DNA from: Amoebidium appalachense | Taxonomy: Eukaryota > Protista > Ichthyosporea | Assembly: GCA_963693365.1 (NCBI GenBank) | Contig: CAVNZM010000002.1 | Span: 13,611,615-13,675,614 of the forward strand | Reading direction: 5' to 3' | DNA: 64,000 nucleotides | In this document: positions 15,401-18,400 of the stretch, piece after piece | Numbering within the stretch: position 1 is the first letter of the stretch | Layout of the letters: each line of letters starts with the position of its first letter | Position numbers and translations under genes: made by a program | Notes under the pieces: model-generated | Database searches by the model: none | Seen by the model: only the letters and a program-made list of their open reading frames with translations | What the model was told of the DNA's origin: nothing

Positions 15401-18400
15401 GTGTGTGTGTGTGGTGGTGGTGGTGGGGGAAGGGGGTGAGGAGAGGGGGAAAGGGGAGGGGGGGGGGGAGGGGTCTACCCTAACGAAGGGATAGAGGCCT
15501 GAAGTGGTCGTATGGGGTTGTGTACCGGTTGTTCTGTGGTGTCCTGTGCTGTTCCATGGTGTGGGATTGTGCACATGCAGATCACGTGACTTGCACGTGC
15601 ACAATGTGCCGACACACCCTTGCCACCACAGCAACAGGTGAAGGCAAAGAAGGGCATCGACATGAAGTTGGGCGCACCAAAGGTAACACCCCCCTCCTAC
15701 CCCTCTTCCGGTGAAGCGCATTCGAAATTCCCCTCCCCGCCACATCCACACATACTCAAGCTGCACCCATCCCTACACCTACATGTACACACACACACAC
15801 ACGCACGCACACACACACATGCGTGCGCACACACACGCACACACACGCGCGCGCGCACACACACACACACACACACACACACACATACACACACACAGAC
15901 ACACACACACCGGTACGCTCTAGTTCACATATCGCTTTGGTTGCACGACGATCCCCCTCCCCCCCCCCCCCCCCCCCCCCCCCCTTCCCCCCCGGCGGCC
16001 TGGGCCACTGTGCACTCTCCACTGATCTTGTAGCCGTCACCCAGTGATGCATCTGGGTGGTGCAAATTGCTATCATATTCGTGGTAGGACTTGACGCCCC
16101 TTCTGCTTGTACTTATGTCGAATATGAACTCCTTTTTTGTGTAAATCTCATTTTGTGCTTGCGTGCTTCTGTATCAACCCCCCCCCCCCCCCCCCCCCCC
16201 CCACAAAAAAAAAAAAAAAAAGCTATGGCCTTTCTCTTCCCCCCCATCATCGGACCACCGTCCCCTCCAGCCAGTTTTCACGTTTTTTGTGTTGTTTTGC
16301 ACAGTCAGGTTTATTGTCTGTATACAGAGTACTGCATTCTCATCCCCCCCCCCCCCCCCCCCCCCCCCCCCCCCCCCCCCCCCCCCCCCCCCCACACACA
16401 CACCTCCCCTCTCTCCCCCTCCCCTCCTCCCACTCCCATCCCCTTTCTCCCTCCCCATTTGGCCCCATCCCCCTGCCCCCCCCCCCCCCCCCCCCCCCCC
16501 CCCCCCCCCCCCCCGCCCGGCCTCCCTTTCTCCCCTCTTAACCCCCTCCCTCCTCCAGGTCAAGGAGCGGCATGCCGGGTTCCAAGCCATCGAGACCAAG
16601 GCCAAAGACATGAGGGCTGTGTTTGCTGCTGCAGTCAAACTGCACGATGCAATCCGCAAGAAGCAGCAGGGTAAAGCTTGAACATATCCCTCCATTATTT
16701 TTGTTTGCTGGCTTGCGGCTGTATGTATAGGCGTACAGTGGTATATACTGGGTTGTGCGCTCTGTGTTCATAGTCTCCATGATGCATACTCCATGCGTGT
16801 GCTCTTGTTAGCATGACCTGCGTTGTGTTGTCCGTTGTGAGTTATCATATACTTTGTAGTCTGAAACAGGATATCTCTGAAACAGAATTCTCATACACCC
16901 CCCCCCCCCCCCCCTCGCCCCCAAACCCCCTCCCTCTCCCTCCCCATGCCATTTCAGAAACCGTCTCTCCGTGTTCCCTTCTTCCCCTCATGTCTCACAC
17001 TTCTTTCCTTGTCCCCCCCCCCCCCCCCCCCCCCCTTCTCCCCACTGCAACTTTAACCCCCGGCCTTTCCCACTGCCCTTGCCTGCATAAGCAACCCTGC
17101 TTGTCTCTGATCAAGACGGGTGACCTACCCATGTTCAAGTGAAACAGTATCTGAGTTGGGTTTCGTTAACGAGGTGAATAGGTCGAAACTCGGGTACTGT
17201 GGATGACGTGGGCCCCCTTTGAGGATGGGCCCTGCTTATTATGCACACTCTTTATGTATGGCTTGCATTCTGCATCGTGTTATCCGTTTGTTCTTGTGTA
17301 CTTCGTACTTTTTGACGCATTCAAACCCCCCTTCTCCCCACTGCTCTTCTGTGTGTACTCTTTCCCGCAAATCCTGTATTGATTCTTCCTCTATCAATGC
17401 CTACTTTGTAATCTGTACCCCCCCCCCCCCCCCCCCCCCGGCACCCTCCCTTTTTGGCTAATGCAATAGATGCAATACATGCCGTATCTGATGCTCACAC
17501 CCCTGCAGAGTACGGATCCCCCCCCCCCCCCCCCCCCCCCCCCCCTCCCCCTCTTTCCCTCCCTTCCCCTCCCTCGTCCGCCCTCCTTCATGCCCATACA
17601 AAGCAATACATCCATATCTAACGGTCACACACCCTTACAGAGATCCAGGCGACCTACGGGGCCAACGGCAAGCTGTATGGGGAGTGGGCCGGGCTGGATA
17701 CTGAGTTTGCAGGTGTGCTGCAGGCAACAGCTACCTTTATGGATAACATGGGGGGCAACCTGGCTGCTAAGGTGCGTGTTAGCCTAAAATTTCGGCCCCG
17801 ATCAGCGACGTGCGCGAAAGACTACACGCTCAATTACGTCATTCAATGGATAACACATTGTAGACTAAAAGATTTTTGACCGCCGCTGGTAGGGCCTCAC
17901 GGCGGTCCTAATTGAAAGCCACCGCAGAATTTCATTTGCTGAGTAAATTGTCGCCATAAAATTTGTCCGGGAAAGTTCTAGATCTAGATCTAGCCAATGT
18001 AAACCTGCAGAATTTGATGGGGGGCAAATGCTTTTTCACCCGTCTCTTTTTGGAGATCTAGATTTAGCCAATGTAAACCTGCAGAATTTGAGGGGGGGGG
18101 GCAAATGCTTTCTGTTGTAAACCTACGAGACGAATGTTTTTCAGTTTTCAGCTTATATGTGATCAACGTAGCTAAATGCTTTTTATAGTTACAAATCATA
18201 TTTTAAAACAATAAACCTTTTTATGGCATAAATATAGAAATAATAAACAAAAAGAAGAACCAGCAAGAAGGGAACATCCTTTTGGGCAGCGGCGCCGCGC
18301 GTGATAAAAAGGGCCGATTTATTTTTTAAAGCCACTAAAGCGGCTTTTAGGCAGCGTATTTTTTAACGAAATGCGCTCTAATTGGATCCCTGTGAGGCTC

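Follow-up and report, generated by a model that had tools for sequence, protein, structure and literature searches.

The 64,000-nucleotide (nt) stretch of DNA whose first lines stand above, called the window throughout, contains a sorting nexin gene (13346-25187, +), and one of its introns, between an exon that ends near 16672 and one that starts at 17640, carries a copy (copy 1) of an abundant repeat whose RNA very probably has a hammerhead-derived fold. The gene has 12 exon matches to EukProt P0001 (75-100%), and its nearest named relatives are frog and yeast proteins with 25-38% identity. It also carries a second copy of the repeat at 23810, both being in the sense orientation. A search of the whole window with nhmmer finds the repeat in 11 copies, with a common 3' end and differing 5' starts, and two subfamilies are represented below by copy 1 and by a minus-strand copy (copy 2), respectively; a third, decayed copy is also used in the comparisons.

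The element is a high-copy, 5'-truncated retroelement that inserts into C-runs. Nine of the 11 copies have a run of at least six C residues within 40 nt of the mapped 3' end, against 12% of random positions, and copy 1 is flanked on both sides by a 19-bp target site duplication (17030-17048 and 17326-17344), as expected from target-primed insertion. The common 3' ends, ragged 5' ends, and target duplication rule out a fold-back DNA transposon. The family is very abundant, with copy 2 covered by 6,059, 2,850, and 4,432 contigs from DNA runs and copy 1 by 5,858 and 2,927, although these contig numbers do not equal copy number. Three same-strand copies of different subfamilies, with other DNA between them, lie within ∼700 bp of a C-rich stretch (54857-55566, -), and this cluster can be read as an insertion hot spot or as nested insertion. 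Naiad/Chlamys elements, by comparison, can form partial tandems that act as pseudo-LTRs.

The structured segment had originally been placed at the 5' end of the repeat, but this does not hold. Copy 1 reaches 17049, and family contigs cover 17045-17112, with loose ends further 5', and extend beyond 17045 into T-rich sequence; because the family continues 5' of 17045, position 17113 is not the element's 5' end, and copy 2 is simply truncated at 55298. The structured part ends ∼85 nt before the element's 3' end. The feature is the 3' terminal region of a retroelement, likely one of the Naiad/Chlamys group of Penelope-like elements, an assignment made from the RNA layout and the insertion habits.

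A probable split hammerhead core

Four pairings, (a) to (d), had been proposed to persist in copies 1 and 2 despite sequence change, and all four are present at the places given for them. Pair (a) (17144-57/17187-200 and 55259-51/55217-09) corresponds to hammerhead stem III, and the crossing pair (d) (17122-27/17179-84 and 55287-82/55225-20) corresponds to stem II, with six of six positions paired in both copies and also in the decayed third copy (39918), where four of them are G.U. Pair (b) (17128-37/17204-12 and 55281-72/55200-192) forms an extension helix, which is broken in the decayed copy. The central palindromes (c) are both perfect 10-mers, although they do not self-fold as hairpins, and the last hairpin corresponds to the alternative hairpin E, although its quoted copy 2 sequence was one C short and copy 1 differs in sequence. 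The k-turn, hairpin H, helix P1, and hammerhead core described below had not been recognized.

An Rfam search, which had been suggested as a check, returns only two tRNAs at the cut-off, together with weak matches at E≤10, none of them to a hepatitis delta virus (HDV) ribozyme family. One of the weak matches is a partial alignment of copy 1 to Hammerhead_1 (14.2 bits, with a cut-off of 34) that covers pair (d) and GAAAC, and it led to the placement of every hammerhead core base in the repeat; copy 2 has no Hammerhead match at E≤10. The strands are ordered as stem II 5' strand, cleavage strand (GUU), C-GAAA-C strand, and CUGAGGA strand (II5'-S-G-C), with G10.1-C11.1 at 17122/17184, G12-A14 at 17185-87, A15.1-U16.1 at 17188/17156, U17 at 17157, and C3-A9 at 17219-25. 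The cleavage triplet GUU fits NUH and is followed by stem I, which has 3 bp in subfamily 1 and 4 bp in subfamily 2. The C3-U4-G5-A6-N7-G8-A9 word adjoining stem I is intact in copy 2 and in the family majority, and copy 1 has U at C3; the T residues of copy 1 at 17218 and 17219 are private, with C accounting for 97% and 94% of DNA depth in run X1 and for 99% at both positions in run X2. No allele is listed at 17184-17188.

The unusual aspect of this core is that the standard A9-G10.1 link of 0-2 nt is missing, the stem II 5' strand being ∼100 nt upstream and the strand after A9 pairing poorly with the stem II 3' strand. A9 leads via a single U into P1, and hairpin H leads into G10.1, giving a four-way junction. 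Because of the missing link the repeat belongs neither to hammerhead types I-III nor to types SGC, CSG, and GCS as these are defined, although it passes the other sequence tests. We regard it as probable that the repeat RNA cleaves itself, and the cut is predicted, by analogy with known hammerheads, between 17157 and 17158, after U17.

Compensatory changes occur in all three stems. A nine-row alignment of window copies has 49 proposed pairs and 116 cells, of which 89.7% are paired, and eight pairs are changed on both sides; none of 500 shuffles reaches the alignment's pairing or double-change value, and slid partners drop to 33-44% paired, but these figures are not a p-value because the structure was drawn from the same copies, and the inner helices are informed by three rows alone, one of them decayed. 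Stem II has two pairs changed on both sides among three copies, and its fifth pair, U-A in copy 1, is replaced by C-G in the other two, with minor alleles of the two positions at matching levels in the DNA runs (4.3%/3.4% in X1 and 4.6%/4.5% in X2). At its third pair, stem I has G-C in subfamily 1 and A-U in subfamily 2. Fourteen variable sites are listed in the motif, of which nine keep or improve the model, three are in linkers, and two break it; in P1, T at 17092 and T at 17231 preserve pairing or extend it, and the majority allele 17102 C in hairpin H turns U.G into C-G. Differences between copies 1 and 2 fall in 18 of 80 paired and 17 of 47 unpaired columns, and folding energy z-scores are unremarkable (-1.26 and -1.24, and -1.7 for the 162-nt domain).

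A descriptor of the split core, with the strand order found here and stems of 5, 4, and 3 bp, matches only copy 2 within the window, and copy 1 as well if C3 may be U. It finds nothing in 20,000 shuffles of copy 2 or in 60 window shuffles. Among the matches listed, it is passed by one of 258 viral loci preselected for core words in this order, and none of these 258 is of type SGC; the single locus that passes (L066, minus strand, ∼231-353 of the reversed locus) is probably a chance match. Viral contigs searched with the repeat's 3' motif gave no matches, and a metagenome scan gave 12 loci, all unrelated by eye and none passing the descriptor.

The prediction of a structured RNA stands insofar as the RNA is conserved, pseudoknotted, ribozyme-like, and part of a retroelement, but not in its HDV-like and microRNA (miRNA)-like variants. 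The miRNA match in Rfam scores 14.5 bits, with the cut-off at 51. The GCUAA linker that precedes a G-rich strand in subfamily 2 resembles J4/2 of the HDV-like ribozymes that occur where retroelements begin; however, the equivalent of the catalytic C75 in J4/2 is T/G in subfamily 1 (17175, with G in 62-68% of DNA depth and no C allele listed) and is C only in subfamily 2, the segment is not a 5' end, and fitting the nested P1/P3/L3/P1.1 double pseudoknot by hand failed on both strands, such that the chance of this explanation is close to nil. Twister, type II hammerhead, SAM-I, RNase P, 7SL, 5S, and box C/D guide RNAs were rejected by eye against their consensus features, as were tRNA A and B boxes, the two box-like words being complementary to one another and located >100 nt within the element.

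A further feature of note, present in both subfamilies, is a kink-turn (k-turn) pattern where stem III meets the extension helix (17135-43/17201-06 and its copy 2 equivalent), which has the 3-nt bulge and tandem G.A pairs of known k-turns (PMC4382518, PMC5689011, and PMC5435971; published work is cited here and below for the parts of it covered). The k-turn is a sequence pattern that may give a kinked fold or bind an L7Ae-family protein. Position 3b.3n is A.G in subfamily 1 and U.U in the subfamily 2 majority (majority U at 55203), and with G at 3n the subfamily 1 k-turn should fold with metal ions. The U.U k-turn of subfamily 2 we take to be box C/D-like, and it may need protein. An element for protein binding of the selenocysteine insertion sequence (SECIS) or box C/D kind would have a tandem G.A core of this form, and some Naiads carry SECIS elements (PMC8557442). 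As an account of the whole structure this is very improbable, as inspection of copies 1 and 2 by eye shows no AA left unpaired at the apical place that a SECIS has above its G.A quartet, no Rfam snoRNA or SECIS match at E≤10, and no explanation of stems I and II and the two core words.

The linker palindromes are stable as self-duplexes (-12.0 and -11.2 kcal/mol) and not as hairpins, and a perfect palindrome arises in 1,822 and 2,926 of 200,000 linker shuffles (0.9% and 1.5%, respectively). From these calculations the palindrome is predicted to be a dimer contact.

Table 1. Positions of the RNA features in copy 1 and of the repeat copies in the window
Feature	Position	Strand	Remarks
P1, 5' strand	17087..17097	+	Pairs with 17227-17239; one of two helices replacing the A9-G10.1 link
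Hairpin H, 8 bp	17099..17121	+	Ends directly before G10.1
Stem II, 5' strand	17122..17127	+	G10.1 at 17122; pairs with 17179-17184; pair (d)
Extension helix (k-turn C-stem)	17128..17137	+	Pairs with 17204-17212; pair (b)
k-turn	17138..17143	+	3-nt bulge; tandem G.A/A.G with 17202-17203
Stem III, 3' strand, ending GUU	17144..17157	+	U16.1 at 17156, U17 at 17157; pair probability 0.98
Stem I, 3' strand	17158..17160	+	Pairs with 17216-17218
Linker palindrome, 10 nt, perfect	17163..17172	+	Different palindrome at 55243-55234
Stem II 3' strand, C11.1 (17184), G12-A13-A14, A15.1, stem III 5' strand	17179..17200	+	
Hairpin E, alternative fold	17210..17232	+	Competes with P1 and the extension helix
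Stem I 5' strand and C3-A9 core	17216..17225	+	CUGAGGA in the family; intact in copy 2 at 55185-55179
Target site duplication of copy 1, left	17030..17048	+	Right copy at 17326-17344
Copy 1, subfamily 1, 5'-truncated	17049..17325	+	Sense strand of the sorting nexin gene intron
Copy 2, subfamily 2	55067..55298	-	Truncated within hairpin H; core intact
Copy 2 core positions	G10.1 55287, U17 55251, C11.1 55220, C3 55185	-	
Third copy, decayed	39830..39935	-	Stems II and III kept, core lost
Subfamily 2 copy, truncated	31015..31208	-	Starts at the palindrome
Seven shorter copies	Starts 2081+, 23810+, 27870-, 36267-, 42521-, 54980-, 55566-		

Several features of the window lie apart from the repeat. 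The next intron of the sorting nexin gene has an insertion resembling a miniature inverted-repeat transposable element (17780-18509), with 19 of 25 bases matching in its terminal inverted repeats and a 9-bp target duplication (17771-79 and 18510-18) that takes in the splice donor. Near-identical tRNA genes at 34844-34915 and 35069-35140 (-), with a spacing of 225 bp, have the anticodons CGU and UGU (Thr), as read from alignments. Exon-sized Pfam matches are present to a diacylglycerol/sphingosine kinase catalytic domain (36856-38455, -) and to an aldo-keto reductase (∼58990-59125, -), and tandem or direct repeats unrelated to the element are located at 21400-23330, 45972-46210, 8954-9152, and 57852-58011.

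Relatives among hammerheads and Penelope-like elements

Among known RNAs, the validated type-SGC hammerhead (HRIMA-1 and variants; PMC10085705) comes nearest to the repeat. The two share the S, G, and C block order (17144-60, 17179-200, and 17216-25), a pseudoknotted core, a helix that connects stems I and II at their tops (17128-37/17204-12), and a tip-to-tip geometric puzzle. Type-SGC and type-CSG hammerheads cleave in vitro, and two sequences are reported for type CSG (PMC10085705). In type SGC, block C is uninterrupted, with CUGAnGA joined to the stem II strand as an explicit assumption, whereas in the repeat this stem II strand is upstream of S and is reached via the four-way junction. 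The repeat also differs in its k-turn and in a linker of 18-21 nt, compared with ∼3 nt in SGC, and its host is a genomic retroelement; in the text and supplement of PMC10085705, as covered, Penelope appears only in reference lists.

The minimal dimeric type I hammerheads of Penelope-like elements (PMC4209133) also have palindromes. They are located in terminal repeats, are dimer-dependent with low activity, and, for the metazoan examples, are thought to act as dimers, a monomer test having given no cleavage. However, they have the standard strand order and an intact core and dimerize via a short stem III, whereas stem III of the repeat is long and its palindrome is between stems I and II. Our literature search found no description of the split-core layout or of non-circular hammerheads in Naiad or Chlamys, and no paper joining hammerhead ribozyme, kink-turn, and Penelope; most subscription papers were outside its scope, the supplement alignments of PMC10085705 were word-searched, and PMC3088659 was covered in passages.

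Naiad and Chlamys elements share 5' truncation, microsatellite targets, very high copy number, and the lack of a canonical hammerhead with the window repeat (PMC8557442). Naiad and most Chlamys elements are described there as without a canonical hammerhead, some having 'HHR_core' or 'HHR_half_core' words, and the success of these elements is read as pointing to a ribozyme that they may not need. We parsed by eye the Naiad ends given as core-word matches in the PMC8557442 supplement, with headerless names inferred from file order, and 10 of 54 Naiad consensus 3' ends have the split-core layout, in which H precedes G10.1 and P1 follows A9. These are from Beroe, one Clytia family, Acropora (three near-identical ends, one with two mismatches), Morbakka (two), the ostracod part of the file (one), and octopus (two near-identical ends that also show the k-turn pattern), and they represent about seven independent families with element sequences unrelated to the window repeat; longer motifs of the repeat have no match in the PMC8557442 sequences covered. 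Seven nematode Naiads have an intact type-CSG hammerhead at the 3' end, ∼8 matches are unclear or a further variant, and ∼29 ends fall outside the core-word matches. U17 is common in natural Penelope-like hammerheads. Arthropod Naiad 3' ends, which were partly parsed, have a variant hairpin around the stem I strand and CUGANGA that resembles hairpin E.

A proposed mechanism and its implications

We tentatively propose that the rewired, complete hammerhead core cuts the element RNA after U17157, likely when two copies pair. Within the four-way junction H would stack on P1, and stem II on the core, placing A9 beside G10.1; in hammerheads generally, stem III stacks on stem II. A single molecule would be unable to hold all of the helices at once, because stem III, the core, and stem II, spanning ∼72 Å from the k-turn to the stem II top, would have to be bridged by the 9-bp, ∼25-Å helix that joins both without a linker. 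Two repeats could swap halves, with the palindrome assisting, such that each k-turn links stem III of one core to the stem II top of the other, and the stem II 5' strand and CUGAGGA strand needed by the S and G strands of one repeat come from another. Cutting would release element RNA from tandem or read-through transcripts, a role proposed for Penelope-like hammerheads generally, and a lone 3' copy would remain mostly uncut and be copied whole. Contig depth indicates that most copies were reverse-transcribed through the predicted cut site uncut, and a dimer requirement would explain such reverse transcription of lone 3' copies.

The dimer route is a real possibility that falls somewhat short of an expectation, and cleavage by the same split core as a monomer is unlikely. 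A monomer would act once the k-turn and a few pairs had opened, or with hairpin E in place of P1 around the CUGAGGA strand, and folds with E and with P1 are near equal in predicted energy (-42.5 and -43.4 kcal/mol, respectively). Some validated type-SGC RNAs share the tip-to-tip puzzle (PMC10085705), the helix lengths of the Beroe Naiad would suit a monomer, and the arthropod Naiad end has its E-like hairpin, the last two as judged by eye. However, each subfamily retains a perfect palindrome of its own, helix lengths are conserved from one subfamily to the other, and the passage of reverse transcription through the site in most copies also argues against the monomer.

A still less probable alternative is that the hammerhead-derived fold does not cut and instead gives the element's reverse transcriptase (RT) a signal for docking or packaging. 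This would agree with the lack of 5' ends at the predicted site, with a position ∼85 nt from the element's 3' end, and with the low activity reported for the Penelope-like hammerheads of metazoans, where PMC4209133 leaves room for other functions. Against it, the core bases, the A15.1-U16.1 pair, and a base other than G at position 17 are kept in both subfamilies and in distant animal Naiads.

Several observations weigh against a self-cleaving split hammerhead that acts as a dimer. No 5'-end pile-up is seen at the predicted cut, with none of the 11 window copies starting there, depth flat across 17157, and no begin or end peak listed. P1 and H show no covariation among window copies, stem I is short (3-4 bp), and two alleles break the model (17212 C at 3-4% and 17220 G at up to 3%). 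In the predicted monomer ensemble of copy 1, hairpin E has a probability of 0.9, the extension helix 0.3, H 0.11, and inner P1 0.01; hairpin E has a pair probability of 0.6 in copy 2, and the inner 3 bp of P1 are weak. The descriptor was written after viewing the copies, and the geometry is rough arithmetic on helix lengths with no three-dimensional model. The known hammerhead alignments covered in PMC10085705 have no large A9-G10.1 insertion, no Chlamys match viewed by eye has the split-core layout (one is unclear), and several split-core Naiads have linkers of 0-7 nt without such a palindrome. Animal Naiads prefer (TA)n and (C)n is a Chlamys trait (PMC8557442); the repeat joins a Naiad-type RNA with (C)n targets. 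The open reading frame (ORF) of Naiad/Chlamys elements has an N-terminal GIY-YIG domain, a CxC motif, and an RT, and no RT or GIY-YIG ORF was matched in the 150 of 900 window frames scanned.

A broader proposal, which we consider doubtful, is that the repeat represents a seventh natural hammerhead wiring, opened inside the catalytic core and closed by a four-way junction. It would be the ancestral ribozyme of Penelope-like elements with an N-terminal endonuclease, reaching beyond animals, and would act as a domain-swapped dimer, with the k-turn as a gate that might be switched by a host protein of the Snu13/L7Ae type.

The window repeat adds to the animal examples a host that is probably a microbial eukaryote and not an animal, insertion at (C)n, two subfamilies whose three stems all show compensatory changes, a conserved k-turn, and palindromes. 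If the split-core reading is true, the assumption of an uninterruptible CUGAnGA block (PMC10085705) would be broken, and there would be abundant genomic examples of non-circular hammerheads, including type CSG. A k-turn occurring naturally in the arm of a hammerhead suggests that a protein controls cleavage, and a hidden, rewired hammerhead would reverse the reading of the ribozyme as dispensable in Naiad and Chlamys elements.

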